Assembly: GCA_018335275.1 (NCBI GenBank)
Contig: JAGXKM010000001.1
Location: forward strand, 8,154 to 72,153
Direction of reading: 5' to 3'
DNA from: Anaerolineales bacterium
Lineage (GTDB): Bacteria > Chloroflexota > Anaerolineae > Anaerolineales > UBA11858
DNA length: 64,000 bases
Shown here: positions 31,285 through 54,694 of the stretch, piece after piece
How the letters are laid out: each line of letters starts with the position of its first letter
Position numbering within the stretch: position 1 is the stretch's first letter
The notes under the pieces: generated by a model
Database searches by the model: none
Seen by the model: the letters and a program-made list of their open reading frames with translations, nothing else
What the model was told of the DNA's origin: nothing
Translations under genes and position numbers: made by a program

Positions 31285-32706
31285 TTAAATCACTTCTGCA
31301 TCTGGTTGCCGAGTCAGGAATTGCCCCATCCCCGCTTTTCCCAACCACTCATCACCATCGACGATCAATTTTCCGCGCAGGAGCACTTTCGCGGGGTAAC
31401 CCTGTAACTCCCATCCCTCGTAAAGATTATAATCCGTGCGGTGGTGAGCCACATCCACCCCGTAAGTCAGGGTCTTTTCCGGATCCCAGATGGCGATATC
31501 CGCATCGGCCCCCGGCATCAACGACCCTTTTCGGGGGTAAAGGCCAAAGATCTTCGCCGCGTTCGTGCTCGTTTGAGCTACAAATTGATTCGGGGTTAAG
31601 GCCCCTTTGACCACTCCCTCTGTCCACAGAACTGGTAAACGATCCCCCACACCCGGCAACCCGTTGGGGATTTTTGTAAAGTCATCTTTGCCAAGCTCTT
31701 TTCCGGGAATTTTAACCTCTTCTCCCTCATATTCAATGGGCGTAGTGCCATCATAGAAGAACGGACAGTGATCTGTTCCCAGAGTCTGGAGGGTGTTATC
31801 CTCCAGGCCCAGCCAAATCCGTTCCTTGTCAACAATTGAGCGCATGGGGGGAGAACAGATCCATTTTGCCCCATCCGGGCGCCGCAGATGATCCACCGTG
31901 AAGAACAGGTACGGGGGGCATGTCTCGCCCATCACAGGAAGGCCCAGATCCCGGGCATATTTCAATTGGTCAACGCCCCCCGCTGTATTCATGTGCACGA
32001 TATACAGAGGTGCCCCCGCCTGAGCTGCCAACGCGGTCCCCCGCAAGACGGATTCCACCGCTCCCCAAGCAGGGCGTGTATGGGCATGCCATTCCGGCGA
32101 GGTGTGCCCTGCCTCCAGGGCTTCCTGCACCAAGACCTCAATGACATCCCCATTTTCAGCATGGAGCATGGTCAGCATCCCCTGATCACGGGCGATGCGC
32201 ATCACCTGAAAGATCTCCCCATCTTGCAGCCGGAGGCGTCCATTATAAGCAGTGAACACTTTAAGCGTGGTGATTCCCGCACCAACCAGATCCGGAATTT
32301 GGGCAGCGATCTCTTTGTCGAAATGGGTGATATTCATGTGAAAACTGAAGTCCACGGCTGCTTTGGGATCCGCTTTGTCACGCCACGCTTCCACATTTTG
32401 CAGCAAATCATTTTTGTCATCGGGCACAAAATCCATCACGGTTGTCGTCCCCCCAAAGGCCGCTGCTTTATGCCCGGAGTAATGGTCGTCCGAGGAAACC
32501 GTATCAAACATCGGCAGATCAAGGTGCGTGTGGGGGTCAATTCCTCCCGGCAAGACGAACTTGTCTTCTGCGTCCACCACCCGGCAGCCGGCCTCATCGA
32601 AATCACGACCGACAGCCGCGATCTTTTCCCCCTCGATCAGGATATCCGCCTGGAAGGTCTCCGAAGCGGTAATCAACGTTCCATTTTTGATGATTGTCTT
32701 GCTCAT
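31285..32706 (-). CDS. Dihydropyrimidinase / D-hydantoinase
   Basis: 473 aa with GGIDPHTHLDLPM, GGTTTVMDF and TTLKVFTAY (the carboxylated-Lys context); cyclic amidohydrolase family. Confidence 0.85.
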   Translation of the reverse strand: MSKTIIKNGTLITASETFQADILIEGEKIAAVGRDFDEAGCRVVDAEDKFVLPGGIDPHTHLDLPMFDTVSSDDHYSGHKAAAFGGTTTVMDFVPDDKNDLLQNVEAWRDKADPKAAVDFSFHMNITHFDKEIAAQIPDLVGAGITTLKVFTAYNGRLRLQDGEIFQVMRIARDQGMLTMLHAENGDVIEVLVQEALEAGHTSPEWHAHTRPAWGAVESVLRGTALAAQAGAPLYIVHMNTAGGVDQLKYARDLGLPVMGETCPPYLFFTVDHLRRPDGAKWICSPPMRSIVDKERIWLGLEDNTLQTLGTDHCPFFYDGTTPIEYEGEEVKIPGKELGKDDFTKIPNGLPGVGDRLPVLWTEGVVKGALTPNQFVAQTSTNAAKIFGLYPRKGSLMPGADADIAIWDPEKTLTYGVDVAHHRTDYNLYEGWELQGYPAKVLLRGKLIVDGDEWLGKAGMGQFLTRQPDAEVI

Positions 32707-32921
32707 AAACCCTTCCTTGAGAATACTCTTACTTCAGGACGAATCTACCTGAAGTCAAATAACCCTGAAATTAGGATGATGTATGGGGAAATTATACTCC
32801 ACAGCCGGGAGTTTTTTCCACAGCCATGGCAGGGTTGAAGGGATAAAAAACCCGGACATCCAGCAGCTCCTTAAGCTGGTACAAATCAGCGCGGAACCTG
32901 AACATGCCTGCATATATTCAC

Positions 32922-33491
32922 CTATTTACTGAGTTCATCCGGGTGGGTGCTGAGACCTAATAAGGCAGCCAGGACCTTCGGGGAAAGGTCTTCATCCGCA
33001 GCATCAGCCGTATACTCGCTGGTTTGATCCGACCGTTCTCTGAGCGCTTTCCACAGCCTTTTTCGTTCACTGGAACGCACCGTCAGATCCGTCAACAATC
33101 TGGCCTTCCGCATATATTGGCCCGTGGTGTACAAAAAAGTGAACCGTTTCCAGTTTCCAGCCAGGATCGGTTCAGGGAGGTTCTGTAAAGGTCCTAACTG
33201 AACCTTGTAATATTCCTCATGCGCCCGAGGATGTTCGGGGTCTTCGCTGATCAGATCAATCCTCCTCGTCAACTCATGACCCCGAACAGGAGCGATTCTT
33301 TCCACACGCCAGCGATCGTCCCCAAAGGTTGCCGGTTGGTAAAAAGCCAAATAGTCCACATTCAAAATCCGCGGGGCGGTGCACACCGGGATCCTATACC
33401 AGCCCAGGACCCGGGCATACTGCATATCACGGGGTTCAGGCATGATCGCCACCAGGATCAGCGCAGAAGGAGAGAGTTGCACGGTCTTCAT
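32922..33491 (-). CDS. Conserved-looking hypothetical protein
   Basis: 189 aa with no motif I can assign. It is soluble with a basic/acidic C-terminal tail. Confidence 0.5.
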   Translation of the reverse strand: MKTVQLSPSALILVAIMPEPRDMQYARVLGWYRIPVCTAPRILNVDYLAFYQPATFGDDRWRVERIAPVRGHELTRRIDLISEDPEHPRAHEEYYKVQLGPLQNLPEPILAGNWKRFTFLYTTGQYMRKARLLTDLTVRSSERKRLWKALRERSDQTSEYTADAADEDLSPKVLAALLGLSTHPDELSK

Positions 33492-33647
33492 AACTTACCC
33501 CCACATGCTGTCAGCTGTCAGGAGACGAAAACAGCTGTTACAGCAAAACAAAAGGTTCTTTTATCTCTTATTTTCATTATACACAAAGCAAGTCACCTCA
33601 TCTTATGAGCCATTTTCCCTCCATGAATCAACTCCCAATTGAAAGTG

Positions 33648-33686
33648 AAAAGCGCCGTGTTCCAAGACTCAGAACGCGGCGCTTTT
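33648..33686 (-). terminator. Intrinsic (bidirectional-type) terminator after the 33710-35170 gene
   Basis: 11-bp stem GCGCCGTGTTC/GAACGCGGCGC (one G.T pair) flanked by AAAA and TTTT. Confidence 0.75.
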
Positions 33687-33709
33687 AAGTTCCTTACTGG
33701 AATAAGGGC

Positions 33710-35170
33710 CTAGAGCAGACCCACTCGGTCGTTAAAATCTTTGATCAATTCATCCATATCGTCAACCTGCTGGTGGTAGCCATCCCAATACGATTTGTCG
33801 GACCATTGGGTATTGAGTTCTTCCAGCTCTTTGCCCTGCTGCTCGATCCAGGTGTAGTACTTCAGGTTGTGGATCCGGCGTTTAGCTTCAAAGTTCAGGT
33901 CCAGTAAATAATTGGGGGTCACCCCTTTCAAGTAACGAGCGTGATGGCGGGCGGCGTCCATTTCCGTGTACTCTCCAAATTCCTCGTGCATCTCTTTCAG
34001 GCGGCTCTGGTAGAGCTCCATGGAATCCGTAAACACGGTGAGGACGATATCGTTCTCATCCAGCTCATAATACTTGGCATATTTGATGGACATGAGCACG
34101 TTAGCAATGCAGGAAAAGCCCATGAAATCCAGCTGGCAGACGAGGTCCTGAGGGACCCCTTTGTCGATCAGATACTGCCGGCCGGCCGGTTCGTTGAAAA
34201 GGCGGGCCAGGTTGACCACCGCGTTGTCGTCGATGGCGATGACCATATCCGTATTTCTGACGTTATGGATCCAGGGTACGTGTTTGTCGCCAATACCCTC
34301 AATGCGGTGCGCGCCAAATCCGTTTTCCAGCAAGGTCGGGCACTGCAGCGCTTCACCAACCGCGATCCTGCTGTTGGGGAAGATCTCTTTCAGGTAATCC
34401 CCGCAGCCCAGGGTGCCGGAAGAGCCGGAGGTCAGCGCCACGCCGTGGTAGTTGTCGTCAGGCCCCATCTCGATACCCAGGACCTCTTCCATGGCATGGC
34501 CCGTGACGTTATAGTGCCAGAGGTGATTGCCAAACTCGTCAAATTGATTGAAGACGAAGACATTTTCCCGTTCCTCGCGCAGTTCCCAGACCTTATCGTA
34601 AATCTCTTTGACGTTGGATTCAGAACCCGGGGTAGCGATCGTTTCCCCGGCCACTTTAGACAGCCAGTCAAAGCGCTCCTGACTCATCCCCTCGGGCAGG
34701 ATGGCGATGGAATCACAGGCCAGTAAAGAAGCATCGTAAGCTCCTCCGCGGCAGTAGTTGCCGGTGGAAGGCCAGACCGCTTCATGGTAGGTGGGGTCAA
34801 ACTGACCGGTCACCAGGCGGGGAACGAGGCATCCAAAGGTGGCGCCCACTTTATGCGATCCCGTCGGGAACCATTTCCCCACCAAAGCAATGATGCGGGC
34901 ATCCACGCCCGTCAAACTTTTAGGGAGCTCTACATAGTTAACACCATTAAACCCGCCCCCATGCTCAACAGGCTCGTTCTTCCAGGTGATGCGGAATAAA
35001 TTCCGCGAAGTGATATCCCACAGGCCAATATCCTTCAATTCCTCTTTGACCTTGTCAGGAATCAATTCCGGGTTCCTCATCTGTGCAAAGGTAGGGATGA
35101 TGATATCCCGCTCCCGGGCTCGTTGGACTGTTCTTTCTCGCTGCTCTTCATTTATAGTTAGATCAATCAT
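33710..35170 (-). CDS. Fold-type-II (TrpB/cysteine-synthase-like) PLP-dependent enzyme, subfamily unassigned
   Basis: 486 aa with FPTGSHKVGATFG (candidate PLP lysine) and PSTGNYCRGGAY. It is longer than CysK or TrpB. Confidence 0.6.
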   Translation of the reverse strand: MIDLTINEEQRERTVQRARERDIIIPTFAQMRNPELIPDKVKEELKDIGLWDITSRNLFRITWKNEPVEHGGGFNGVNYVELPKSLTGVDARIIALVGKWFPTGSHKVGATFGCLVPRLVTGQFDPTYHEAVWPSTGNYCRGGAYDASLLACDSIAILPEGMSQERFDWLSKVAGETIATPGSESNVKEIYDKVWELREERENVFVFNQFDEFGNHLWHYNVTGHAMEEVLGIEMGPDDNYHGVALTSGSSGTLGCGDYLKEIFPNSRIAVGEALQCPTLLENGFGAHRIEGIGDKHVPWIHNVRNTDMVIAIDDNAVVNLARLFNEPAGRQYLIDKGVPQDLVCQLDFMGFSCIANVLMSIKYAKYYELDENDIVLTVFTDSMELYQSRLKEMHEEFGEYTEMDAARHHARYLKGVTPNYLLDLNFEAKRRIHNLKYYTWIEQQGKELEELNTQWSDKSYWDGYHQQVDDMDELIKDFNDRVGLL

Positions 35171-35227
35171 ATGCTTCTATTCCTTTTCTCCAAGTAAAGT
35201 GTTTCTTTTCCATTCCCCTGTGTTTTA

Positions 35228-36160
35228 TCATTCCTCTATCTGGGGAGCCTCCCGAACGATATAAAGGGGCCTCCCTTTGGCCTCGTCGTAAATGCGCCCG
35301 ATGTATTCTCCCAAAACTCCCAGGAAGATCAACTGCACCCCTCCCAGGAATAAGATCAGGATCAGGGTCAATGCCTGTCCATACAGAGCCCGGGATCCCG
35401 CTAATCGCAGAACAATGGTGGTCAACAGGGCCAGGATCCCCAACCCGGTCGCCCCAAACCCTACATACATGGCAAGCTGTAAGGGGAAGATTGAAAAGCC
35501 GGTCACGGCATCACTGGCTAACTTGACCATTTTCCGCAAAGGGTATTTGGTTTCACCGGCATGCCGCTCCTCCCTCTCATAAGCCACACCCGTTTGTTTG
35601 AAGCCCACCCAGACGGACATCCCCCGTAAAAAGCGGTGCTGTTCGCGCATCTGGTTGAGCACGGAGACCACTTTGCGGTCTAACAACCGGAAATCGCCGG
35701 TATCCAGAGGGATCGAGATCTCCGTAATGCGTTGGATGAAGCGGTAAAAGGCGGCAGCGGTGGCCAGTTTGAACCAGCTCTCCCCTTCCCGTGTTTCCCT
35801 CACCGCGTAGACGACCTCATATCCCTCCTTCCATTTTTGAATCAGATCCAGGATCACTTCGGGAGGATCCTGCAAATCCGCGTCGATGATGACCACAGCT
35901 TCCCCCCGGCTGTAATCCAGCCCAGCGGTGACCGCGATCTGATGACCGAAATTCCGGGCGAAGATCACCGGACGTACGCGGTCATCCTTCTCGGCAAGCT
36001 GCCGTATGTGGTCCACAGACCCATCCGTGGACCCATCATCCACCATCACGAACTCCCAGCTCTCTCCCGTCCTCTCCATGACCTCACGGATCCGGCGATA
36101 GAGGACGGGAAGGTTGTCTATTTCGTTATAAATGGGTGCAATGATCGTATAGGTAGGCAT
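35228..36160 (-). CDS. Family-2 glycosyltransferase (polyprenol-phosphate sugar transferase-like) with C-terminal transmembrane helices
   Basis: 310 aa with IIAPIYNE, VMVDDGSTDGS, IDADLQDPPE and two C-terminal hydrophobic helices. Confidence 0.8.
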   Translation of the reverse strand: MPTYTIIAPIYNEIDNLPVLYRRIREVMERTGESWEFVMVDDGSTDGSVDHIRQLAEKDDRVRPVIFARNFGHQIAVTAGLDYSRGEAVVIIDADLQDPPEVILDLIQKWKEGYEVVYAVRETREGESWFKLATAAAFYRFIQRITEISIPLDTGDFRLLDRKVVSVLNQMREQHRFLRGMSVWVGFKQTGVAYEREERHAGETKYPLRKMVKLASDAVTGFSIFPLQLAMYVGFGATGLGILALLTTIVLRLAGSRALYGQALTLILILFLGGVQLIFLGVLGEYIGRIYDEAKGRPLYIVREAPQIEE

Positions 36161-36178
36161 AGTTATAAACCTGGTTGA

Positions 36179-37444
36179 TTAACTTTCCAGCAGCTTCTTC
36201 ACCTCATCTAAATCGGGTTTGATGACAGGCGCTTCCCCGGCTGCTTCCATGGCCGCATCCACGTCCTTCAACCCGCTCCCGGTATTTAAAACCAGGACCG
36301 GGTCCCGGGGCTGGACCAGGCCATCCTCAAGGGCTTTTTTGAGCCCTGCATAGGAGGTGGCCCCAGCTGGTTCAGCGAAGATACCCACGCGCCCCAAATC
36401 AGCGACAGCCTGCAGGATCGCCTGATCATCAACGGCTACATAGGCTCCCTCCGTTTCCGTCGCTGCCCGTAAGGCCCGCAACCCATCACTGGGCAAATTG
36501 ACAGAAATGCTGTCCGCCAGGGTATCCGCGGATACAGGCTCGATCTCTTCTGTCCCTTTCTGATAGGCGTTGGCGATGGCTGCTGAGCCTGTGGATTGGC
36601 AGCCAAAGATGCGGGGCATACGCTCCAGCATCCCTATTTCAGAGAGGTCCTTAAAGCCTTTGTGCAGGCCGGAAATGATATTCCCGTCTCCCACAGAGAC
36701 GAACACAGACAACGGCCGGTCTAAATCCTTCTTCTCAATGACCGTTTCCCAGATTTCGAAGGCGGCAGTTTTCTTCCCTTCCGCGGTGAAAGGGTTATAT
36801 CCCGTATTCCGGTTATACCAGCCGAATTCCTCTGTGGCCTCCAGCGAGAGCTGGTAGGCGGCATCGTAATTATCATCGACCAGGATCACCCGGGCGCCGT
36901 AAATCTGCAGCTGGGCGATCTTGGCAGGCGGAGCCGTTTTAGGGGCAAAAATCACCGATTGATGACCCACCGCAGCGGCCATACCCGCCAGGGCCGCGCC
37001 CGCATTTCCCGTGGAAGCAGTGACGATCACCTCCGCACCGATTTCCCTGGCCCGGGCTACCAGCAGCGCGCTGGCCCGGTCCTTGAAGGAAGCTGTGGGA
37101 TTACTGCTTTCATCCTTGATCCAGAGCTGCTTCAATCCCAGCTCGCTGGCCAGTCGGGGTGTTGAATAGGTCGGGGTCCATCCTGCAGCCCCCAGCGGAG
37201 TTCCCAACCCGATGGCTTCTTCCACAGGCAGCAGCGCCAGATAACGCCAAAGAGACTCTTCAGGAAAACAGATCAGCTCTTCCCGTGACTTATCCTCCAG
37301 GGTTTCATAATCCAGCAGGACATCCAGAATGCCGTCGTCCTCCGGGCAGGTGTAGGTGACCTCACCGGGTTGATATCTCTTTCCACAAACCGAGCACCGA
37401 TAACCGACATACTTCTCCATGCAGTTAGACTCCTTCTTTGACAC
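36179..37444 (-). CDS. thrC: Threonine synthase family PLP enzyme with an N-terminal zinc ribbon
   Basis: 421 aa with YRCSVCGKRY..YTCPEDDG, NPTASFKDRAS and ASTGNAGAALA. The start overlaps the upstream ABC ATPase stop by 20 nt. Confidence 0.7.
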   Translation of the reverse strand: MSKKESNCMEKYVGYRCSVCGKRYQPGEVTYTCPEDDGILDVLLDYETLEDKSREELICFPEESLWRYLALLPVEEAIGLGTPLGAAGWTPTYSTPRLASELGLKQLWIKDESSNPTASFKDRASALLVARAREIGAEVIVTASTGNAGAALAGMAAAVGHQSVIFAPKTAPPAKIAQLQIYGARVILVDDNYDAAYQLSLEATEEFGWYNRNTGYNPFTAEGKKTAAFEIWETVIEKKDLDRPLSVFVSVGDGNIISGLHKGFKDLSEIGMLERMPRIFGCQSTGSAAIANAYQKGTEEIEPVSADTLADSISVNLPSDGLRALRAATETEGAYVAVDDQAILQAVADLGRVGIFAEPAGATSYAGLKKALEDGLVQPRDPVLVLNTGSGLKDVDAAMEAAGEAPVIKPDLDEVKKLLES

Positions 37445-38975
37445 CAGCCATCAGCAAACCCAGCTTTTCCGGGGTGGCTTCTTCTCGGGGCACAATGCCC
37501 ATGATCTGACCTTCATAAATAACGGCAATGCGATCTGCTAGGGCGAGAATTTCATCCAGGTCCTCGGAGATCAATAATATTGCCGTCCCATCCAGCCGCT
37601 CTTCCAGCAGTCGGGAGTGGACGTATTCCATCGCACCCACATCCAGGCCCCGGGTAGGCTGGGAAGCGACAATCACCCGCGGATCCCGGGAAAGCTCCCG
37701 GGCTACAACTACCTTTTGTATATTTCCGCCGGAAAGACTTTTCGCCAGGGTTTCCTGGGAGGGAGTTTTGATCTGGTAATTATGAATCAATTCGCTGCTG
37801 TGTTGCTCAACCGCTTTCAAATTCAGAAAACCCCAGTTCGAGAAGGGTTGTTTGTGATGTTCCCGGAGAATCAGGTTTTCCGCAACGGTGAAATCCTTGA
37901 TCATGCCATCCCGCATTCTCTCCTCGGGAATATAAGACAGAGCACGATCTGTCCGGCTGATCGGCGGCAAGGCGGTGATGTCCTCGCCATCCAGGAAAAT
38001 CCGTCCAGCTGTGGCTTCCCGCAGGCCGGTGATCACTTCAGCCAGCTCGCGCTGCCCGTTGCCGGAAACTCCTGCAACGCCCAGAATCTCACCGGAATGC
38101 ACATCAAGATCGACTTCCTGCAGGCTGGAGGTTCCCCGATTACTCAAGCAGGAAATGTTATCTACTTTCAAACGAACTTCTCCCGGTTCAACCTGTTCAA
38201 TTTCAGGGCGAAAGTCAACCTCCCTGCCCACCATCCAGCGGGCTAAATCCGCTTTCGTTGCCTGGGCGGTTTGATGAGTGCCTACTTTCTTCCCATCGCG
38301 CAGCACCGTCACCCGGTCGCTGATGTCAATGACCTCATGCAGTTTATGAGAGATGAAAATCAGCGCGTGGCCGTCCTTCGCCATCTCCCTGATGATGCAG
38401 AAGAATTCATCCACTTCCTGCGGGGTGAGCACAGCTGTGGGCTCATCCAGAATCAGCAGGGCGGCTCCGCGGTAAAGGGCTTTGATGATCTCCACCCGCT
38501 GCTGCTGGCCAACAGAAAGCTGCCAGATATAGGCATCCGGATCAATATTCAACCCGTACAGCTCCGCCAGTTCCAGAATACGCTCGGAGACTTTGTTCAG
38601 ATCCGTCAGCGGCTCCCGGGAGGAGCGCAGGCCGAGGGCAACATTTTCCGCCACCGTCAGGGTTTCCACAAGCATAAAGTGCTGGTGGATCATGCCGATC
38701 CCCTGTTCAATGGCATCGGTGGGCGATTCTATGACCACCTCTTCACCATTGAGAATGATCTCGCCCTCATCGGCATGATACAAACCATAGAGAACGTTCA
38801 TCAGCGTGGTTTTCCCCGCCCCGTTTTCCCCCAGCAGGGCATGCACCTCACCGGAGCGGACATCAAAGTCCACTTTATGATTGGCAACCACACCGGGAAA
38901 CCGCTTGGTGATACCCTTCATGGAGAGGTGATCAATCTGGGTGTGGCCAGAAGGTAAAATGGTTCTTTCAGTCAT
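37425..38975 (-). CDS. ABC transporter ATP-binding protein, duplicated ATPase (nucleoside/sugar type), locus 2
   Basis: 516 aa with two Walker A/B plus signature sets (GENGAGKTT, LSVGQQQRVEI, LSGGNIQKVV). Confidence 0.85.
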   Translation of the reverse strand: MTERTILPSGHTQIDHLSMKGITKRFPGVVANHKVDFDVRSGEVHALLGENGAGKTTLMNVLYGLYHADEGEIILNGEEVVIESPTDAIEQGIGMIHQHFMLVETLTVAENVALGLRSSREPLTDLNKVSERILELAELYGLNIDPDAYIWQLSVGQQQRVEIIKALYRGAALLILDEPTAVLTPQEVDEFFCIIREMAKDGHALIFISHKLHEVIDISDRVTVLRDGKKVGTHQTAQATKADLARWMVGREVDFRPEIEQVEPGEVRLKVDNISCLSNRGTSSLQEVDLDVHSGEILGVAGVSGNGQRELAEVITGLREATAGRIFLDGEDITALPPISRTDRALSYIPEERMRDGMIKDFTVAENLILREHHKQPFSNWGFLNLKAVEQHSSELIHNYQIKTPSQETLAKSLSGGNIQKVVVARELSRDPRVIVASQPTRGLDVGAMEYVHSRLLEERLDGTAILLISEDLDEILALADRIAVIYEGQIMGIVPREEATPEKLGLLMAGVKEGV

Positions 38976-39065
38976 GAGATATTCCTGTACCTGGTTACCG
39001 GTATCTTTCGCTGTCCCTGTAAATCCGGCAAATCGTCATCTCTGAGATGCCGATCTCCCGGCTTT

Positions 39066-39100
39066 CCCCCTCCCGCTCCACAGCTGGAGCAAGGAGGGGG
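39066..39100 (-). other. GC-rich extended hairpin between the SBP and ATPase genes (candidate mRNA stabiliser or processing element)
   Basis: CCCCCTCC-c-GCTCCA-cagc-TGGAGC-aa-GGAGGGGG. No U-run follows on the minus strand. Confidence 0.5.
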
Positions 39101-39153
39101 AGGATTTCGGAGTTTCAGGCAGGGAAAAGCACTCCCCACCAGCAGTGAGAATC

Positions 39154-40158: not shown

Positions 40159-40239
40159 CCTTTACTCCTTACTAAATAATGGTCTCCATTTTTCTTCTGA
40201 GCACTGTCTTCGTTCTCGTTTCACCTCCAGCTTGAATGA

Positions 40240-44658: not shown

Positions 44659-44661
44659 TGT

Positions 44662-46224: not shown

Positions 46225-46306
46225 TTCTCCCTGCTTTTATACATCATAACGCCCTCCCCGCCCCTCCTTCGCAGAGGGACAGGGAGAGCGCAAGTCTTAG
46301 ATTCAA

Positions 46307-47584: not shown

Positions 47585-48541
47585 TTAAGGGACGATATGG
47601 GTGCCGGTTTCTCCCTGTAAAGCTCGGCCGATGTTTTCCGGATTCGTGACAATGGCCTTTTTGCCGCCGCTCTCCAGGAAATGCACAATGGCTTTGATCT
47701 TGGGCTCCATGGAACCTTTCGCAAAGTGCGTCCCCTCTTCGAGATATGCTTTGGCCTCCGCAACGGTCATCTGATCGACCCATTCCTGATCGGGTTTCCC
47801 GAAATTCAGGGCAACCTTTTCAACATCCGTTGAGATCAGATACAAATCCGCATCGATTTCATTGGCCAACATGCCAGACGCGAAATCCTTATCGATCACA
47901 GCTGCGGTCCCCCGCACCTCGTCGCCATCCCGAATGACCGGGATACCGCCGCCGCCCACAGTGATGGTGATCGTCCCCGACTCAATCATGGCTTTCACGG
48001 CTTCTAGCTCCATGATTTCCTGGGGAAGGGGTGAAGGCACAACCCGCCGCCACCCGCGCCCAGCGTCTTCCACGACATCCCATCCATCTTCTTCCTTTCG
48101 GCGCTGGGCTTCCTTCTGCTCCATAAAACTGCCAATAGGCTTGGATGGTTCCTGAAAAGCGGGGTCATTTGGGTCCACCCGAACCTGGGTGATCACCGTG
48201 GCCGCTATCTTGTCAATCCCGCGTTTCCTGAGTTCGTTCTGTATATTCTGCTGTAAGGCATATCCAATCGCGCCCTGGCTGTCTGAGCCGCAGACATCTA
48301 AAGGCAGCTCATGCATGCCTTCCACCCTGTGGGCAATTTCCGAGCGGCGGAGGATGAACCCCACCTGCGGTCCGTTCCCATGCCCGATGGCGATATCCCA
48401 CCCCTGCTCGATCATGTTTACCAGGTGCTTGGCGGTTTCTTTTGCCGCCAGGTACTGGTCCTCTACGGTCTGGTGATCTTTATCTCTGATTAACGAGTTG
48501 CCGCCAATGGCAACAACTGCAACTTTTCTTTCCTCACTCAT
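47585..48541 (-). CDS. arcC: Carbamate kinase
   Basis: 318 aa with VVAIGGNSL, GHGNGPQVG and GGGGIPV. Confidence 0.9.
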   Translation of the reverse strand: MSEERKVAVVAIGGNSLIRDKDHQTVEDQYLAAKETAKHLVNMIEQGWDIAIGHGNGPQVGFILRRSEIAHRVEGMHELPLDVCGSDSQGAIGYALQQNIQNELRKRGIDKIAATVITQVRVDPNDPAFQEPSKPIGSFMEQKEAQRRKEEDGWDVVEDAGRGWRRVVPSPLPQEIMELEAVKAMIESGTITITVGGGGIPVIRDGDEVRGTAAVIDKDFASGMLANEIDADLYLISTDVEKVALNFGKPDQEWVDQMTVAEAKAYLEEGTHFAKGSMEPKIKAIVHFLESGGKKAIVTNPENIGRALQGETGTHIVP

Positions 48542-48553
48542 TCTCTCTCCTTC

Positions 48554-49534
48554 TCAGCGCATGGTCAAAGCCATAACAGCTTTCTGGGCATGCAGACGAT
48601 TTTCCGCTTGATCATAGACAACAGATTGAGGTCCATCCATGACTTCACTCGTGACTTCGACATCACGGTCTGCGGGGAGGGGATGCATATAGATAGCATC
48701 TTTATCCGCCAGCGCCATTTTCCGGGCATCTGTGATCCAATCTTTGTATTGATCCTGAATGCGTTTGCCTTCTTCCTGGTCCCGCGTGGTCAGCAAAGGA
48801 CCCCATGATTTTGCATAGACAATGTCCGCACCCTCAAAACCGGCTTCCATATCATCCACAACTTCAAATTTACTGTCAAATTTCTCTGCCTGTTCCCGGG
48901 CCTGGTCCATGATCTCAGGCATGAGCTCAAACTCCGGAGGATGAGCTAAGGTTACATCCAGTCCAAAGCGGGGCATCTGCAGGATCAATGATTGGGGAAC
49001 GGAAATCGGCTTCAGATAGGAGGAAGCGTAAGCCCAGGAGACGACGATCTTCTTTCCCCGCAGATCCTTGCCTTTCTTCTCCTGAATGGTCATGATGTCG
49101 GCCAGGCATTGATGAGGATGGTAAAACTCATCCTGCATGTTAAGCACGGGGACACGGGAAGCGGATGCGACGTTGTTGAGATAATTATTGCCGATCCCCC
49201 AATCCACATGGCGGATGGCGATCCCGTCAAAATACCGGCCCAGGATCTCGCCCAGTTCTTTCTCCGTGTCTCCATGGGAGACCTGCGTGGTGCGGCTCTC
49301 AATGAAAGCAGCGTGCCCGCCTAATTGGGCCATGCCGGACTCGAAAGATGACCTCGTGCGTGTGCTGGAAAAGAAGAACAACATGCCCAATGTCTTGTTG
49401 TCCAGATAGGCATGAGGCTGACCCAGGGCCCGTTTTTTCTTCAGGTCCCAAGCCACATCCAACACCGTTTCCACTTCTTCTCTGCTGAAATCAAGATCGC
49501 TGATCAAATCCCGATTTCTCAAATCAGTAATCAT
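48554..49534 (-). CDS. Carbamoyltransferase of the AOTCase/SOTCase/YgeW-like (knotted) type; substrate unknown
   Basis: 326 aa with SSTRTRSSFE, HPHQCLAD, VVSWAYASSYLKPISVPQS, YAKSWGP and MHPLPADRDVEV (HPLP rather than the OTCase HCLP). Confidence 0.6.
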   Translation of the reverse strand: MITDLRNRDLISDLDFSREEVETVLDVAWDLKKKRALGQPHAYLDNKTLGMLFFFSSTRTRSSFESGMAQLGGHAAFIESRTTQVSHGDTEKELGEILGRYFDGIAIRHVDWGIGNNYLNNVASASRVPVLNMQDEFYHPHQCLADIMTIQEKKGKDLRGKKIVVSWAYASSYLKPISVPQSLILQMPRFGLDVTLAHPPEFELMPEIMDQAREQAEKFDSKFEVVDDMEAGFEGADIVYAKSWGPLLTTRDQEEGKRIQDQYKDWITDARKMALADKDAIYMHPLPADRDVEVTSEVMDGPQSVVYDQAENRLHAQKAVMALTMR

Positions 49535-49605: not shown

Positions 49606-49632
49606 TCTATTGGTACGCTCGGATTACGCCGT

Positions 49633-50586
49633 CTACTCTTTTGCGCCCAGCACCAGGGCGATAAGCGCCATGCGCATGACTACGCCGTTGAACCCTTCTT
49701 CCCAATAGCGGGACCAACGGGTATGGTCCACGTCAGGGGGAATCTCATCCATGCGGGGCAGGGAGTGGAGCAAGACAGCATCTGACTTCGCCTTGGTTTC
49801 CAGCAGTTCCTTGGTGATCTTGAATTCAGGCGGAGTCTGGGGTACTTCACCCTTCCGCTCATCGCGGGACTTGGTGTAATCGGGCTGCACCACGGGTTCC
49901 ACGAGGATGACATCCGCGTCAGCGATCACCTCACGGACATCATCGCCTTCGGTGAAATCCAGGCTGCCCGCTTTGAAATCTTCCCGGTACTCATCGGGCA
50001 GGGACATATCCTCAGGAGAAATCAGGGTCAAAGGGCAGTCAAACTGGGTCAAAGCATGACCCAGGGAGTGCATGGTGCGCATGCGCATATCCCCGACAGC
50101 CACCCAGTTCAAACCGTCAATGGTCCCCTTCTCCTTCAAGATTGTGTAGAGATCGGTCAATATCTGCGTGGGGTGTTCGCCCCAGCCGTCTCCCCCATTG
50201 ATGACCGGCACACTGACCCATTTGGCCGCTTCATGAGGGGCACCCTTCTGGAAATGGCGGGTGACAATCACATCGCCGTAATGCTCCAACATCTTGAAGG
50301 TGTCTTTGATGGACTCCTGGTAGAAATCGCCCGCCCTGGTCACTGTGGCATCCGCGAACCCCGTCACTTTCCCACCTAAACGGAGCATGGCGGATTCATG
50401 GGCCAGCCGAGTGCGCGTTGACGGTTGATAGAAAGCCGTCACCAGCGTCTTCTCTTTGAGCAAATCCACATTCTTGCGGTTATGAGCGATGGGGGCCAGT
50501 TCATCCGCGACTTCGAAAACTCGCAAAAATTCGCGGCGTTCAAAATCCTTTAACGATAATATGTCACGTCCTGAAAAACTTCTCAT
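49633..50586 (-). CDS. Aspartate-carbamoyltransferase-like enzyme with divergent substrate loops
   Basis: 317 aa with QPSTRTRLAHE, HPTQILTD, RTMHS and HSLPRMDEI. The 80s-loop reads TRAGDFYQES instead of S-x-x-KGE-[ST], and the RVQKER region reads PVVQPD. Confidence 0.6.
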   Translation of the reverse strand: MRSFSGRDILSLKDFERREFLRVFEVADELAPIAHNRKNVDLLKEKTLVTAFYQPSTRTRLAHESAMLRLGGKVTGFADATVTRAGDFYQESIKDTFKMLEHYGDVIVTRHFQKGAPHEAAKWVSVPVINGGDGWGEHPTQILTDLYTILKEKGTIDGLNWVAVGDMRMRTMHSLGHALTQFDCPLTLISPEDMSLPDEYREDFKAGSLDFTEGDDVREVIADADVILVEPVVQPDYTKSRDERKGEVPQTPPEFKITKELLETKAKSDAVLLHSLPRMDEIPPDVDHTRWSRYWEEGFNGVVMRMALIALVLGAKE

Positions 50587-50638
50587 GTCTTAACTCCTTG
50601 AAATAAATTAACTTTTCTCATCCAATTCGTATCCTTGG

Positions 50639-51364
50639 TTAAATTCCATTTCCCACGCGTCGGACGATGTGAAAATGAAAGTAACCCGGTAAAAAGTAGC
50701 TGTAAGAATAATCAACCACACGTCCCCTCGTAGAACATAACTCCGAACGGAAAACTAAAAGAGGAGCATGCCGCTGGATATCCAGCGCACTGGCAATTTC
50801 TGAAGACGCGCCGGCGGCGTTGATTTCCGTGCGGGAGCTGGCCAGAAGAGGCTGATCTTTCTTTAATAACAAATCCAGAATCGAACCCGTAAAATCCAAC
50901 GTGATCTCTGCTGCCGATAAGATATCCATGGGTAAGATATCAATCAGATAGGCAACAGGACGGTTCTCTGCCATGATAACCCGTGACACATGGGTGACTT
51001 CTGCTCCAGGTTCCAAACCGAGCGCTTCCCTTGCTTCCTCAGACGCAGGTTTTTGTTCCACGATCAGTTCGCCCATGGAAACGGGAAGCCCAATTCTCTC
51101 TGCCAGGGTTTCCAGACTGACCAAATGCTCCAGCCCGCTTTCAAAAACCTGTGTAGGGTGGATCACAAATGTGCCCACCCCCTGCTTCCTGCGCAGCAAT
51201 CCTCGGGTTTCAAAAGTTCTCATCACTTCCCTGAGCGTTGCGCGGGACACGTCAAGTTGATCCGCGAGTTTGGGTTCCGATGGCAGCCGTTCCCCGGTCT
51301 CCATGTCAGCTATGATCACACTTAAGCGTTCCTTGACGGTTTCTGATACTCCTTGTCCGCTCAT
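50639..51364 (-). CDS. GntR-family transcriptional regulator, HutC/UTRA subtype
   Basis: 241 aa with an N-terminal wHTH (LPSEPKLADQLDVSRATLREVMRTFETRGLL) and a UTRA-length C-terminal domain. There is an ATGA overlap with the adenine deaminase stop. Confidence 0.8.
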   Translation of the reverse strand: MSGQGVSETVKERLSVIIADMETGERLPSEPKLADQLDVSRATLREVMRTFETRGLLRRKQGVGTFVIHPTQVFESGLEHLVSLETLAERIGLPVSMGELIVEQKPASEEAREALGLEPGAEVTHVSRVIMAENRPVAYLIDILPMDILSAAEITLDFTGSILDLLLKKDQPLLASSRTEINAAGASSEIASALDIQRHAPLLVFRSELCSTRGRVVDYSYSYFLPGYFHFHIVRRVGNGI

Positions 51365-53178
51365 AATTTCACTTCTTCAATTGCTGGAATGAGTTCAAAT
51401 TTCTCTGCATCAACCAATCCAAGATCCGAGATCCGTAAAGCGGGAATGACCACTAACGCCAGAAGACTGAGCTGCATATTTGGATTTTTAATTGTGCACC
51501 CGCACTGCCTGAATCCCTCTAACACCGAGGCAGCTTCTTTAGCTACCCGTTCAGCCCGTTTATCAGACATCAAGCCAGCGATCGGCAAAGGGACCTTTCC
51601 GATCACAGCATCCTCTTTGATCACGACCTGTCCCCCCTGCATCTCAACCAGTTCATTGGCTGCGCGCGCCATCTGTGCTTCATCCGTGCCCACCACAATC
51701 ATGTGATGGGAATCATGGGCAACCGTGCTGGCGACAGCGCATCCCGCTTCGAGCTCAAATCCCTGAACCAGTGCCACCTGCACATCCCCCGTGGCATTGT
51801 GCCTTTCTACCAGGGCGATCTTCGCCAAATCACGTTCCAAATCCACCTTGATCTCGCCGTCCTCGGCCTGAACGGAAACCTGTACATGCTTGGTGGGGGC
51901 CTGACCTTCCATGACGCCTATGACATGAGCCACCAGATTATCTCCAGCGGTTCCCTCCGGGACCCGCAAACGGAAATCCTCAGCCTGAAGCGACCTTTTG
52001 ACATTCACGGAGTGTGTCGCCCAGCGTGGATATTCCACCTCGGGCAAATCAACCACCAAGCTCCCGCTCTCCGCGATCACATGGCCCTTGGCCACCACGG
52101 TCTGAACATGGAAATCGTCCAAATCCGGGACCAGGAGGATATCCGCAAAGCGTCCGGGGGCAATCTGACCCATATCCTTGGCCACACCAAAATGTTCCGC
52201 TGTGTTCAAAGTCGCCATCTGGATCACAGTAAGAGGGTCCACACCCAAATCGATGGTATGCCGGACCACGCGATCCATGTGTCCTTCGGTGACCAGGGTT
52301 TCAGAGTGAGTGTCATCCGTACAGAGCAGGAAATGCCGGGAGTCCAGACCTTCCTCAGTGACAGCCTTAATCTGAGCAGCGACATCCAACCAGCCGGACC
52401 CATAACGCAGCATGGCTTTCATGCCCTGTCGAACACGCTTCAATGCATCCACCTTCCGCGTCCCTTCATGATCATCTTCAGGGCCACCTGCCGCATACCC
52501 ATGAAATGGTAAGCCAAGATCAGGAGAAGCATAATGCCCTCCGATCACTTTCCCCGCATGCCGGGTGGCAGCCATTTCAGCGTGCATTTTTCGATCATTT
52601 TGGAAGACGCCGGGAAAATTCATCATCTCTCCCAATCCGATGATCCGCTCCCATGCCATGGCCTCTTTAACGTCTTCCGGTCCAATGCGAGCACCCGGCG
52701 TTTCCAATCCAGGGGCAGAGGGAACGCAAGAGGGAACCTGCACCCAAACATGAATGGGCTGTTTTTCCGCCTCTTCTGCCATCAGGCGGACACCTTTGAG
52801 CCCAAACACATTAGCAATTTCATGAGGATCGACAAACATGCCCGTCGTCCCCTGAGGTGCTACCGCCCGGACGAACTCTGTGATGGTAACCATGCCCGAT
52901 TCAATATGCATATGAGCATCCAAGAGGCCAGGGACCAGATATTGACCTTCCGCCCGGATGACCTCCGTTTCATCCCCCACAGCATGAGACGCATCCTCCC
53001 CCACAAAAGCGATTCGCTTTCCAGCAACGGCCACATCTATTCCGGGCAATATCTCTCCCGATTGTACGTTCACCCACTGCCCTCCCGTGATCACCAGGTC
53101 AGCGGGGGTTCTTCCCATCGATACGTTTACCAGCTTCTGTGTTCGTTCACGGATGTCATCTACGTGCATTCTACACAC
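51361..53178 (-). CDS. ade: Adenine deaminase
   Basis: 605 aa with PGLLDAHMHIESGM; the two-domain Ade architecture and length fit. Confidence 0.85.
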   Translation of the reverse strand: MCRMHVDDIRERTQKLVNVSMGRTPADLVITGGQWVNVQSGEILPGIDVAVAGKRIAFVGEDASHAVGDETEVIRAEGQYLVPGLLDAHMHIESGMVTITEFVRAVAPQGTTGMFVDPHEIANVFGLKGVRLMAEEAEKQPIHVWVQVPSCVPSAPGLETPGARIGPEDVKEAMAWERIIGLGEMMNFPGVFQNDRKMHAEMAATRHAGKVIGGHYASPDLGLPFHGYAAGGPEDDHEGTRKVDALKRVRQGMKAMLRYGSGWLDVAAQIKAVTEEGLDSRHFLLCTDDTHSETLVTEGHMDRVVRHTIDLGVDPLTVIQMATLNTAEHFGVAKDMGQIAPGRFADILLVPDLDDFHVQTVVAKGHVIAESGSLVVDLPEVEYPRWATHSVNVKRSLQAEDFRLRVPEGTAGDNLVAHVIGVMEGQAPTKHVQVSVQAEDGEIKVDLERDLAKIALVERHNATGDVQVALVQGFELEAGCAVASTVAHDSHHMIVVGTDEAQMARAANELVEMQGGQVVIKEDAVIGKVPLPIAGLMSDKRAERVAKEAASVLEGFRQCGCTIKNPNMQLSLLALVVIPALRISDLGLVDAEKFELIPAIEEVKL

Positions 53179-53218
53179 TCCCGGAAGTAAAACCAGGACC
53201 TGAGAATAAACTCCGTCA

Positions 53219-54631
53219 TCATTGGACCAACTGCTGCGCTAATTGGTTGTGAGTTTCTATCAACTGGTCGACATCTGCGGTGACCAGGGCACCTTCCTTG
53301 ACCACAAATTTTCCACCCACAACGTTGTAAGCGACTCCCCGCGGTGCACAAAAAGGCAGGGCTGCAACCGGATCGTGCAGCGCACCCGCATAACTAACCT
53401 GGCTCAAATCCAGGGCTATAAAATCGCCGGCCTTCCCCTCTTCCAACGATCCGATGTCAGAACGTCCCAGCACGGCTGCTCCCCCGCGGGTTCCCATCTC
53501 CAGCGCTTGCCGCGCAGACATGATCGGGAGGTGTTCTTCATTTGAGCGGGAAGCGCCTAACATCCCCGCTCTCAACCGAGCTAAAAGCATCGCCTGCCGG
53601 ACTTCTTCCAGCATATGTGAACTGTCATTGCTGGCTGAACCATCCACCCCCACACCCACATCAATCCCAGCCTGCAACATATCCAGGATGGGGGCCGCTC
53701 CCGAAGCCAGCCGCATATTCGAACTCGGGCAATGGGCAACCCCACAGTGATTTTCCGCATACACATCCAGCTCCTGCTCATTGACGTGAACGGAATGAGC
53801 GAACCAGACATCGGGTCCGATCCAATCCACCTCTTCCATATAAGCTACAGGGCGGTGGCCAAATTGCTCCAGGCAAAAATCGATTTCATCCTCTGTCTCC
53901 GACAGGTGGGTATGCAGACGCACCCCATAGTCACGGGCTAACGCTGCGCTTTCCCTCATCAGATCACCCGTGACGCTGAAAGGTGAACACGGCGCCAGCA
54001 CAATTTGCACAAAGGAACCTGGTTCAGGATCATGATAGGCTTCAATCACCCGCTGCGAATCGCGGAGAATTTCATCTTCACCCTCCACCACACTGTCCGG
54101 GGGAAGTCCTCCTTTGCTCTCCCCCAGACTCATCGAACCCCGAGAAGCATGCAATCGCAAACCGATCTCTTGGGCAGCTTGAATCTCATCATCCAAGCGA
54201 GAGCCGTTAGGAAATAAGTAGAGATGATCCGAAGCCGTCGTGCAGCCCGATAAAGCCAACTCAGCCAGGGCAGTCTTCGTGGATACCCTGATATGCTCCG
54301 GTCCCATTCGCGCCCAGATGGGATAAAGTGTTTTCAACCAGTGAAAAAGATTTACATCTTGAGCATCCGGGATCACCCTGGTTAACGTCTGATAAAAATG
54401 GTGATGCGTGTTCACCAGCCCAGGGAGAACAATATGCCCGGAAAGATCAAGGATCTCCTCTGCCTGACCAGGCAAAGAGTCAGTGGGTCCCACCGCTTCA
54501 ATGAACCCGTCCTTAATAAAAATACCACCGCCTTTGATTTCGCGGCGGTGGTCATCCATCGTGACTAAAATATCTGCGTTCTTGATCAATAAAGTGCCCA
54601 TTAGATTCATCCACTTGTTAATCCTGAACAA
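53219..54631 (-). CDS. Amidohydrolase of the guanine/8-oxoguanine deaminase (SsnA/AtzB-like) group. The true start may be at 54610 or 54601.
   Basis: 470 aa with LIKNADILVTMDD, GLVNTHHHFYQTLTR, HLSET and GVDGSASND. Confidence 0.75.
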   Translation of the reverse strand: MFRINKWMNLMGTLLIKNADILVTMDDHRREIKGGGIFIKDGFIEAVGPTDSLPGQAEEILDLSGHIVLPGLVNTHHHFYQTLTRVIPDAQDVNLFHWLKTLYPIWARMGPEHIRVSTKTALAELALSGCTTASDHLYLFPNGSRLDDEIQAAQEIGLRLHASRGSMSLGESKGGLPPDSVVEGEDEILRDSQRVIEAYHDPEPGSFVQIVLAPCSPFSVTGDLMRESAALARDYGVRLHTHLSETEDEIDFCLEQFGHRPVAYMEEVDWIGPDVWFAHSVHVNEQELDVYAENHCGVAHCPSSNMRLASGAAPILDMLQAGIDVGVGVDGSASNDSSHMLEEVRQAMLLARLRAGMLGASRSNEEHLPIMSARQALEMGTRGGAAVLGRSDIGSLEEGKAGDFIALDLSQVSYAGALHDPVAALPFCAPRGVAYNVVGGKFVVKEGALVTADVDQLIETHNQLAQQLVQ

Positions 54632-54635
54632 CCCG

Positions 54636-54649
54636 ATTGTCTGACAATT
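54636..54649 (-). promoter_or_regulatory. Operator copy 1 (ATTGTCTGACAATT), at or near the predicted +1
   Basis: Palindrome ATTGTC-N-GACAAT, an exact 14-nt repeat of copy 2. Confidence 0.55.
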
Positions 54650-54652
54650 GAA

Positions 54653-54681
54653 AGTGTATCAAAAAGGGTCTGGGTTGTCAA
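54653..54681 (-). promoter_or_regulatory. Sigma70-type promoter of the deaminase-gntR-carbamoyltransferase operon
   Basis: The minus strand reads TTGACA (54676-54681), a 17-nt spacer, then TACACT (54653-54658). Confidence 0.55.
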
Positions 54682-54694
54682 TTGTCTGACAATT
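54680..54694 (-). promoter_or_regulatory. Operator copy 2 (AATTGTCTGACAATT), overlapping the -35
   Basis: Perfect 7-1-7 palindrome AATTGTC-T-GACAATT; its end overlaps the TTGACA -35 hexamer. Confidence 0.55.

Follow-up and report, generated by a model that had tools for sequence, protein, structure and literature searches.

A stretch of 64,000 nucleotides from an Anaerolineales bacterium (GenBank assembly GCA_018335275.1, contig JAGXKM010000001.1, positions 8,154 to 72,153; hereafter the window) carries an unbroken string of purine and ureide genes, all on the minus strand, at 31285-54631. This cluster is probably the form that the lower half of the reductive urate (2,8-dioxopurine) pathway, the part dealing with ureides, takes in Anaerolineae (Chloroflexota), in company with purine deaminases and importers. 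The evidence consists of the identities of the genes, their conserved synteny, their adjacency to known pathway genes in relatives, departures from the expected active sites in several of the enzymes, and the orthology of two of them to an adjacent gene pair in Nocardioides. Everything read from this genome itself comes from the window.

The cluster and its conservation among relatives

The cluster was read from an open reading frame (ORF) listing together with NCBIfam and Pfam scans; NCBIfam scores are quoted against the curated cut-off of each model. In the direction of transcription, the cluster begins with an 8-oxoguanine-deaminase-type amidohydrolase (OGD; 53219-54631), adenine deaminase (51361-53178) and a GntR/HutC-family transcriptional regulator (50639-51364). 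Two transcarbamylases follow, one resembling aspartate transcarbamylase (ATCase) and the other ornithine or acetylornithine transcarbamylase (OTCase or AOTCase), which we call ATCl (49633-50586) and OTCl (48554-49534), and after them come carbamate kinase (CK; 47585-48541) and two Bmp/PnrA-type ABC importers (42618-47398 and 37425-42332). The string ends with a ThrC-like pyridoxal phosphate (PLP) enzyme of fold type II (ThrCl; 36179-37444), a family 2 (GT2) polyprenyl-phosphate glycosyltransferase (35228-36160), a 486-aa fold-type-II PLP enzyme of the CysK/CBS superfamily (PALP486; 33710-35170), a 189-aa ORF (unk189; 32922-33491) and a HyuA-type hydantoinase/dihydropyrimidinase (31285-32706). 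All of the genes that an earlier, sequence-only reading of this DNA had listed on one strand were found. The adenine deaminase stop and the regulator start overlap by 4 nt, ATCl lies 98 nt upstream of OTCl, CK starts 12 nt past OTCl, and the stop of the ATPase gene of the second importer overlaps the ThrCl start by 20 nt. A scan for promoters and terminators ran at chance level (15 vs 14.6; 17 vs 20.1) and does not define operons, and an Rfam scan returned no riboswitch within or near the cluster. The flanks are folP and htpG downstream and a Ser/Thr kinase gene and gyrB upstream; by Pfam scans, the remaining large ORFs of the window are housekeeping only.

The OTCl family was found in at least 595 genomes in a scan that kept one genome per species, and the best 80 of these formed a synteny sample (loci with L numbers below) in which 10 kb on either side was read by tblastn and ORF clustering. 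All 80 are Chloroflexota-type metagenome-assembled genomes (MAGs), with OTCl identities of 75-96%, and the order GntR-ATCl-OTCl-CK-[ABC, variable or absent]-ThrCl-[GT2]-PALP486-[unk189-hydantoinase] recurs among them. Presence was counted only where the locus extended for 9 kb or more on the side in question (n=49-50). ATCl is kept at 45/50 loci and CK at 45/49, while the housekeeping flank gyrB is kept at just 7/50. The regulator sits directly upstream of ATCl at 43/50 loci, ThrCl follows CK at 33/49 and PALP486 is present at 23/49; OGD and adenine deaminase lie upstream of the core at 28/50 and 29/50, respectively. The hydantoinase is syntenic in L018, L022, L061, L080, L086 and L088. In some loci the gene order is altered yet the cluster is intact, as where CK has moved upstream (L033, L051), and in others the cluster is intact without any ABC genes (L013, L039, L044, L052, L056, L058). 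That the cluster survives both rearrangement and loss of the ABC genes speaks for selection on clustering in addition to shared ancestry; the grouping is not due to chance, and the co-occurrence that the sequence-only reading put forward as a check is a property of related genomes.

Two further observations were made in these loci. An ORF of ~120-160 aa, of the four-helix-bundle type found as 23S rRNA intervening sequence, lies repeatedly between transcarbamylase and kinase genes (L010, L012, L015, L021, L056, L057, L069, L076, L079), and also occurs in L170, where it adjoins SsnA. OTCl homologues 85-86% identical are deposited under Candidatus Heimdallarchaeaceae MAGs, and L038 is labelled Zixiibacteriota; these entries are probably mis-binned Chloroflexota contigs rather than cases of gene transfer.

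Adjacency to genes of the reductive urate pathway

The anaerobic urate pathway of E. coli and Clostridium was reconstituted in 2025 (PMC12507026; bioRxiv 10.1101/2025.04.24.650524; commentary PMC12990295), so that the description of this chemistry as only partly resolved, from which the sequence-only reading started, is outdated. In the upper steps XdhD/XdhAC reduce urate to 2,8-dioxopurine, YgfK or UacX dearomatises the ring, and SsnA opens it, yielding ureidomethyl-hydantoin. In the lower steps HyuA forms 2,3-diureidopropionate, YgeW phosphorolyses one ureido group with YqeA producing ATP, YgeY hydrolyses the other ureido group, and YgeX converts 2,3-diaminopropionate to pyruvate (PMC12507026; bioRxiv 10.1101/2025.04.24.650524).

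In relatives of the window, the core of the cluster is found next to genes of this pathway. L033 holds XDH (xanthine dehydrogenase) subunits, the core, NpdG, a selenium-dependent XDH (Se-XDH; TIGR03311 926 vs 830), SsnA (NF005540 511 vs 444) and OGD; L064 holds YgeY, the core, YgfK (TIGR03315 870 vs 835) and SsnA (NF005540 554 vs 444); and L030 runs from GntR and YgeY (TIGR03526 467 vs 321) through OTCl, CK, ThrCl and PALP486 to XDH. XDH-family genes lie within 10 kb of the core at ~12 of the 80 loci, examples being L033, L052, L064, L030, L003 and L017, and XDH subunits directly follow the ABC genes in L003, L004, L007, L010 and L017. For the reverse view, 80 metagenome loci centred on SsnA relatives were read, with co-occurrence counted in the 47 of at least 7 kb. 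A search seeded with a Chloroflexota SsnA showed that the gene is common across the phylum. L151 and L166 run OTCl-CK-ThrCl-(GT2)-PALP486-(unk189)-SsnA-NpdG, and in L168 a 66% homologue of the window hydantoinase adjoins Se-XDH and SsnA. Among annotated neighbourhoods of Chloroflexota SsnA proteins, L169 reads YgeY-GntR-TCase-TCase-CK-PALP-PALP-SsnA (TCase, transcarbamylase), followed by F420 genes, and L170 combines the core and SsnA with NpdG, CofC/D/E, a luciferase-like reductase (Bac_luciferase) and an XDH FAD subunit. The gene sets of L169 and L170 match a remark, made at Pfam level, that the gene clusters around SsnA in Chloroflexota employ a yanthine reductase that is putatively F420-dependent (PMC12507026, Fig. 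3 and Discussion). The likeness to the E. coli ygeW-ygeX-hyuA-yqeA-ssnA region noticed in the sequence-only reading is therefore real and one of shared function, the core being contiguous with SsnA, YgfK, Se-XDH and YgeY in relatives.

The window itself holds no upper-pathway gene. E. coli XdhA/B/C/D, YgfK, YgfM and YgeY found no tblastn match in it at E <= 1e-3, and Chloroflexota Se-XDH, PucD-like, FAD/FeS, YgfK and NpdG proteins found none at the same threshold; the absence of XDH subunits and YgeY had been correctly noted from the sequence alone. Pfam scans and tblastn showed no dearomatising reductase of the YgfK, UacX or F420-dependent luciferase-like kind in the window, and SsnA is missing too, the window amidohydrolases scoring 137 and 221 bits against the TIGR03314 cut-off of 455. 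Pfam scans of the window revealed no AIR-synthase-type ORF, selD having been given no dedicated query. Beyond the window ends, the two edge genes led only to a sister MAG in fragments, where the genes were housekeeping ones (purB, truB, ribF, rpsO) and none belonged to the upper pathway.

From the missing XDH the sequence-only reading had drawn a possible XDH-independent route, a step that rests on absence from 64 kb. In its fullest form, a lineage that has neither XDH, reductase nor SsnA would ferment external hydantoins or ureides (ureidomethyl-hydantoin, diureidopropionate or dihydropyrimidine-type compounds), cross-feeding on intermediates of purine degradation and using the hydantoinase, two ATP through one CK, and the PLP pair to reach pyruvate, all without selenium. 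We regard such a stand-alone fermentation as unlikely. It would agree with the absence of upper-pathway genes from the window and from its closest relatives, L001 and L086, which have the same synteny (in L086 folP and htpG follow the hydantoinase as they do in the window), with the two importers of variable type inside the cluster, and with a hydantoinase that passes the dihydropyrimidinase equivalog. However, absence from one window is weak evidence when ~12/80 relative loci carry XDH-family genes near the core, some of them with SsnA, and when five have XDH subunits immediately after the ABC genes. The regulator appears to share a transcript with the deaminases for adenine and 8-oxoguanine, an arrangement that is sensible only if purine rings are degraded; binding proteins of the Bmp type are classed as binding nucleosides; and a PydA-like dihydropyrimidine dehydrogenase was not seen. 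Most simply, the upper pathway would be encoded elsewhere in the same genome.

Two transcarbamylases and one carbamate kinase

ATCl is 61% identical over 308 aa (E = 1e-136) to A1SH59 of Nocardioides sp. JS614 (sequence from PMC4016543, suppl. 5), which Barba et al. (2013) classed as a pseudo-ATCase and found adjacent to a ygeW homologue, xdhABC and hyuA (PMC4016543). The residues that contact carbamoyl phosphate are all kept (STRTR, HPTQ), and the departures lie on the side of the second substrate. K84 is replaced by Y in 58/59 family members and the 80s loop is altered; an 8-aa insert, EPVVQPDY, falls at the R229/Q231 site, where the RxQ region reads EPVVQPDYTK and A1SH59 shows the same pattern; and HSLP stands in place of the ATCase HPLP. 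By these features ATCl is a pseudo-ATCase of the Nocardioides type (HSLP subgroup) with an altered second-substrate site. An assignment as PyrB was rejected, as neither the aspartate-binding residues nor HPLP are in place and TIGR00670 is just over its cut-off (250 vs 237).

OTCl, at 326 aa, is a compact relative of YgeW. It is 35% identical to the E. coli protein by BLASTP and has the loops SWAYxxSYxKPxSVPQ, DADIVYxKSW, KDW and YMHxLPAD in common with it, while the YgeW insertions are absent. It is 69% identical to E8MZ16 of Anaerolinea thermophila, 62% to A1SH60 of Nocardioides and 53% to Q2RGZ7 of Moorella, all three of which are labelled YTC, with E8MZ16 and A1SH60 as sisters (support 99), in the supplementary alignment and tree of PMC4016543. 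Judged by these matches, OTCl is a member of the published YgeW-type transcarbamylase (YTC, YTCase) family. Among the YTCase motifs S[LT]RT, HP[TMF]Q and H[AVC]LP (PMC4016543) it has the first, as STRT, and in place of the others it carries, like its Nocardioides orthologue, HPHQ and HPLP. It scores under every NCBIfam cut-off, those for OTC and AOTC included. An AlphaFold2 (AF2) model of OTCl reached a pLDDT of 52.2, from a shallow alignment at >= 75% identity, and was too poor for a fold search; the aligned proline-rich loop SWAYASSYLKPISVPQS is the sole pointer to a knot in the protein. Since ATCl and OTCl both match the Nocardioides pair, the two genes have stayed together, among purine genes, in two different phyla.

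CK passes TIGR00746 (383.5 vs 358) and is 48% identical to E. coli YqeA by BLASTP. With this kinase downstream, we propose from the sequence comparisons that OTCl acts as a 2,3-diureidopropionate phosphorylase and ATCl as a phosphorolytic substitute for YgeY. The distribution of the two genes suggests the latter: YgeY, which occurs in 10-11 of the 80 related loci, occupies the same slot as ATCl, with ATCl only at 49 loci, both at 5 and YgeY only at 5.

A pair of PLP enzymes proposed in place of YgeX

BLASTP of the window PLP enzymes against E. coli yielded no YgeX orthologue in the window. ThrCl aligns with YgeX at 26% identity over 140 aa, PALP486 over just 44 aa, and NF006058, the diaminopropionate ammonia-lyase test, scores 58 against a cut-off of 276; YgeX/DpaL orthology of either protein was rejected on these short, weak alignments and this score. 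ThrCl passes the threonine synthase model TIGR00260 (180 vs 167) and keeps the PLP lysine (SFKDR). When it is compared with five solved threonine synthases, STGNT becomes STGNA, NPxRxEGQKT becomes NPFTAEGKKT, and VGNAGN becomes VGDGN; the window protein and 40/41 family members depart from all three of these otherwise invariant motifs. Going by the Thermus enzyme, we take these motifs to have a part in binding the substrate phosphate. On motif evidence, ThrCl is not a canonical threonine synthase. PALP486 (Pfam PALP, 41.8 bits) has CysK-like motifs with a conserved lysine within TGSHK, and in the PDB it comes closest to cysteine synthases, with ~57 bits. Its family is small (338 clusters at E <= 1e-30) and holds no named relatives, and its AF2 model (pLDDT 53.6, again from a shallow alignment at >= 75% identity) was too poor for a fold search.

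The distribution of these genes points to a shared role. Among the 47 SsnA loci, ThrCl occurs in 9, PALP486 in 8, both in 7 and YgeX in 2, and YgeX is never found with ThrCl or PALP486; no YgeX orthologue was found in any of the 80 genome loci. In L113 and L128 a true YgeW (63-65% identical to that of E. coli) and a YgeY occur alongside ThrCl and/or PALP486, and YgeX is missing, so that the PLP pair would replace YgeX whichever type of transcarbamylase is present. We propose, on this pattern of occurrence, that ThrCl and PALP486 together take the place of YgeX.

A housekeeping explanation would turn the same genes into PyrB, an (acetyl)ornithine transcarbamylase and threonine synthase, with CK supplying carbamoyl phosphate as in Pyrococcus and phylogenetic inertia keeping the genes together. 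We consider this very improbable. It can appeal to the narrow passes of ATCl and ThrCl at the TIGR00670 and TIGR00260 equivalogs, to best PDB matches with the Pyrococcus ATCase and OTCase, to the 75-96% identity of OTCl in the best 80 genomes, which is typical of core enzymes, and to database annotation, which follows the same lines and leaves identical proteins with generic names. But ATCl lacks K84 and HPLP and has its insert at the aspartate-binding site; A1SH59 was separated from genuine ATCases by Barba et al., whose tree also includes a genuine OTCase, A1SJJ1, from the same Nocardioides genome; residues that none of the five solved threonine synthases varies are missing from ThrCl; and OTCl, a YTC family member, fails all of the cut-offs for OTC and AOTC. 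The adjacent genes include none of the arg, pyr or thr sets: they encode SsnA, XDH, YgeY, a regulator of the HutC type and purine deaminases, and YgeY is able to fill the ATCl slot. Plain thrC, pyrB or argF roles, which would have undone the sequence-only reading, are thus not what the ThrCl motifs, the ATCl site and the family membership of OTCl indicate.

Hydantoinase, deaminases, importers and accessory genes

The hydantoinase is 37% identical to E. coli HyuA over its full length by BLASTP and scores 505.7 against 393 with TIGR02033. From this similarity we propose that it converts ureidomethyl-hydantoin to 2,3-diureidopropionate. An allantoin/allantoate route like that of Rubrobacter would make the same protein an allantoinase, ATCl a ureidoglycine carbamoyltransferase, and the second transcarbamylase an enzyme for oxalurate or ureidoglycolate. 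The precedent is a different pseudo-ATCase, Rxyl_2847, which lies beside allantoinase and carbamate kinase and phosphorolyses allantoate in vitro (PMC4016543); 2,3-diureidopropionate also resembles allantoate (PMC12990295). The amidohydrolase, however, scores 237 against 358 for allantoinase and 506 against 393 for hydantoinase/dihydropyrimidinase, ATCl belongs to the Nocardioides rather than the Rubrobacter subgroup, and genes for uricase, HIU hydrolase or glyoxylate metabolism did not turn up. Relatives hold SsnA, YgfK or F420 genes, which are markers of the reductive route, and the catabolism of allantoate has no step for PLP enzymes of fold type II; an allantoate route is therefore extremely improbable here. 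Reductive pyrimidine catabolism, by dihydropyrimidinase and phosphorolysis of beta-ureidopropionate, was rejected: there is no PydA, such a route has no use for the fold-type-II PLP enzymes, and the loci of relatives indicate SsnA instead. Clostridial purine fermentation of the Rabinowitz type was likewise rejected, none of its signature enzymes being seen.

OGD had been labelled SsnA/8-oxoguanine-deaminase-like in the sequence-only reading, and the second half of this label stands: NF006055 gives 677.6 against 532. As SsnA it was rejected, SsnA models giving 137-149 against 444-455 with 23% identity to the E. coli protein. It is 27% identical to E. coli GuaD and adjoins a true SsnA in L033, and its probable task is to channel oxidised guanine towards urate. 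For adenine deaminase (TIGR01178 510 vs 472.5), formation of hypoxanthine from adenine is predicted. The regulator is matched by PhnF/HutC-type models, and its counterpart in L169 has GntR and UTRA domains.

Importer 1 consists of a binding protein (46307-47398; Pfam Bmp 208 bits), an ATPase (44662-46224) and two permeases (43567-44658 and 42618-43574), and importer 2 of two permeases (41172-42332 and 40240-41172), a binding protein (39154-40158; Pfam Bmp 136 bits) and an ATPase (37425-38975); ABC models match both systems. Importer 1 is at the same position in ~28/49 loci and missing from the others, and importer 2 occurs in 7-8 loci. The GT2 protein, recognised by PgfS/ArnC-like models, lies between ThrCl and PALP486 in 16/49 loci and also in the SsnA locus L166; a pathway role for it is doubtful, and it has no obvious part in purine catabolism. 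unk189 matches nothing in Pfam or NCBIfam. Its homologues adjoin SsnA in L136, L140 and L166 and lie downstream of PALP486 in 9 genome loci, and it may be an unrecognised component of the pathway.

A second, divergent adenine-deaminase paralogue (35-41% identity) follows the Bmp ABC genes in L004, L007, L010, L016, L020, L031, L034 and L079, and in some of these eight loci the XDH FAD and FeS subunits come next after it.

Proposed pathway and points against it

In the pathway that we propose, the Bmp-type ABC systems would import purines or nucleosides, and adenine deaminase and the 8-oxoguanine-type deaminase would channel bases to hypoxanthine and urate. Urate would be taken to ureidomethyl-hydantoin by an XDH-family molybdenum enzyme, a dearomatising reductase and SsnA, none of them encoded in the window. 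The HyuA-type hydantoinase would open the hydantoin to 2,3-diureidopropionate, OTCl would take off one ureido group by phosphorolysis, and ATCl would remove the second in the same way, at the step for which E. coli uses the hydrolase YgeY. For ATCl we favour 3-amino-2-ureidopropanoate, the YgeY substrate in the order of Liu et al., because ATCase chemistry targets an alpha-N-carbamoyl amino acid and ATCl is without the cationic residues that bind the beta-carboxylate of aspartate. CK would convert both carbamoyl phosphates to ATP, giving a predicted two ATP per urate instead of one. ThrCl and PALP486, in the place of YgeX, would eliminate the beta-amino group of 2,3-diaminopropionate (or of a mono-ureido form), so that pyruvate and ammonia result, and the GntR/HutC protein would control the gene set.

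Several observations weigh against this proposal. XDH, SsnA, YgfK and F420 reductase genes are absent both at the window and at the closest loci of the same synteny, L001 and L086, and the upper pathway is for this reason unproven for the organism; a true SsnA lies within 10 kb of the core in only 2/80 genome loci. folP begins 9 nt after the hydantoinase stop, and this closeness may put the two in a separate transcription unit. Much of the synteny stems from one class, so that shared ancestry adds to it. OTCl falls far under the NCBIfam YgeW cut-offs (184-196 vs 453-500; TIGR03316 184 vs 500), and in our neighbour-joining tree of 30 sequences its grouping with E. coli YgeW as against AOTCase drew 41/100 bootstraps, too few to place it, which is why we rely on the larger published tree. 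Two alignments of ATCl disagree at R229/Q231 (P/V or K/R), and the case that it is not an ATCase consequently rests on K84, the insert, HSLP and the 61% identity to A1SH59. Because 5 loci carry both ATCl and YgeY, the two are not strict alternatives. Finally, the proposal does not explain the need for two PLP enzymes.

Comparison with known systems

The E. coli/Clostridium urate cluster comprises xdhD-ygfM, ygfK, ssnA, hyuA, ygeW, yqeA, ygeY and ygeX (PMC12507026; bioRxiv 10.1101/2025.04.24.650524). The window shares with it the HyuA-type hydantoinase (37%), carbamate kinase (48%) and a YgeW-family transcarbamylase (35%), together with the logic of ATP-coupled ureido phosphorolysis. Unlike that cluster, it lacks XDH, the reductase, SsnA, YgeY and YgeX, adds a second transcarbamylase, the pseudo-ATCase, has the ThrC-like and CysK-like pair for YgeX, and has the shorter form of YgeW that lacks the insertions. 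In place of the GuaD and NCS2 permeases of E. coli it has deaminases for adenine and 8-oxoguanine and ABC importers of the Bmp type, and the regulator is GntR/HutC, not the sigma-54 protein YgeV. The E. coli equivalences suggested in the sequence-only reading accordingly hold for the hydantoinase, the kinase and the YgeW-family protein; they do not extend to the amidohydrolase OGD, a deaminase type rather than SsnA, to the PLP enzymes, which are not DpaL, or to the pseudo-ATCase, which has no E. coli counterpart.

The Chloroflexota SsnA/F420 clusters of PMC12507026 come from the same phylum and share core genes, whereas the window locus lacks the SsnA/F420 segment. Neighbours were scored there by Pfam only, with PF00185 taken as YgeW and PF00291 as YgeX (PMC12507026), a scoring that does not tell apart two transcarbamylases or recognise PLP enzymes other than DpaL. 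The A1SH59/A1SH60 genes of Nocardioides sp. JS614 are adjacent, as in the window, with a hydantoinase in both contexts; they belong to an actinobacterium, have xdhABC next to them, and were given no function in 2013 (PMC4016543). Rxyl_2847 of Rubrobacter xylanophilus is a mechanistic precedent for the ATCl proposal: it derives from ATCase, is encoded beside carbamate kinase, and in purine catabolism cleaves an alpha-N-carbamoyl (ureido) acid by phosphorolysis. It differs in its pseudo-ATCase subgroup (HTLP label), its aerobic uricase/allantoinase context and its substrate, allantoate. In modules of the arginine deiminase type, a transcarbamylase is run phosphorolytically and pulled by carbamate kinase towards ATP, as proposed here, but substrates and subfamilies are others, and the window sets two transcarbamylases on one kinase.

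Already known, then, are the pathway itself, its Chloroflexota variant at Pfam level, and the adjacency of a pseudo-ATCase and a YTCase, noted in 2013 without a function; we found no literature that followed up this adjacency. New are the wide occurrence of the cluster and its fixed architecture, the sequence-based indications that a pseudo-ATCase alternates with YgeY and that a ThrC-like/CysK-like pair replaces YgeX, and the predicted gain, from the ureide part, of two ATP for each urate. Anaerobic urate breakdown was solved only in 2025, in gut bacteria, and the order of ureido cleavage is still disputed; here a re-engineered natural form would be present in the Chloroflexota, in at least 595 species, and outside the phylum in one actinobacterium or more. 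In it the hydrolytic, energy-wasting YgeY step appears to be swapped for a second phosphorolysis, which would double the substrate-level ATP from the ureide part, and a regio-specific transcarbamylase pair could decide the order of cleavage. Candidate substrates follow for three orphan families, the Nocardioides-type pseudo-ATCases, the ThrC-like proteins annotated as threonine synthase and the 486-aa CysK-like proteins annotated as cysteine synthase. The genes are systematically mis-annotated as pyrB, argF, thrC and cysK in Anaerolineae MAGs, so metabolic reconstructions are distorted, and the Anaerolineae affected are abundant in digesters and sediments.

Other features of the window

The folP gene downstream of the cluster (30388-31275, minus strand) encodes a dihydropteroate synthase whose best model is that of the Sul4 sulfonamide-resistance proteins, NF033502, at 394.8 bits and under its cut-off of 600; ordinary folP models score lower. 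On the far side of the cluster, a plus-strand gene at 59311-61296 encodes a 661-aa amidohydrolase with a TRZ/ATZ/MtaD-like N-terminal domain and a C-terminal extension of ~220 aa to which no assignment was made. Of the window proteins it is nearest to SsnA, at 26% identity and far under the SsnA cut-offs. A metallophosphoesterase gene overlaps its stop, and another metallophosphoesterase adjoins the cluster in L169.

Towards the other end of the window, a TPP riboswitch at 11252-11357 on the plus strand (69 bits vs a gathering score of 54) lies upstream of thiamine pyrophosphokinase (11417-12061) and an ABC binding-protein/permease pair (12030-14972), and a tRNA gene is found at 15049-15121. 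The minus-strand gene at 17597-23689 encodes a bacterial alpha-2-macroglobulin homologue of 2030 aa with MG2, A2M bait-region and bMG10 domains. At 23918-24379 on the same strand is a nucleoside 2-deoxyribosyltransferase-family protein (PF05014, 62 bits), a nucleoside-handling gene ~7 kb from the cluster.

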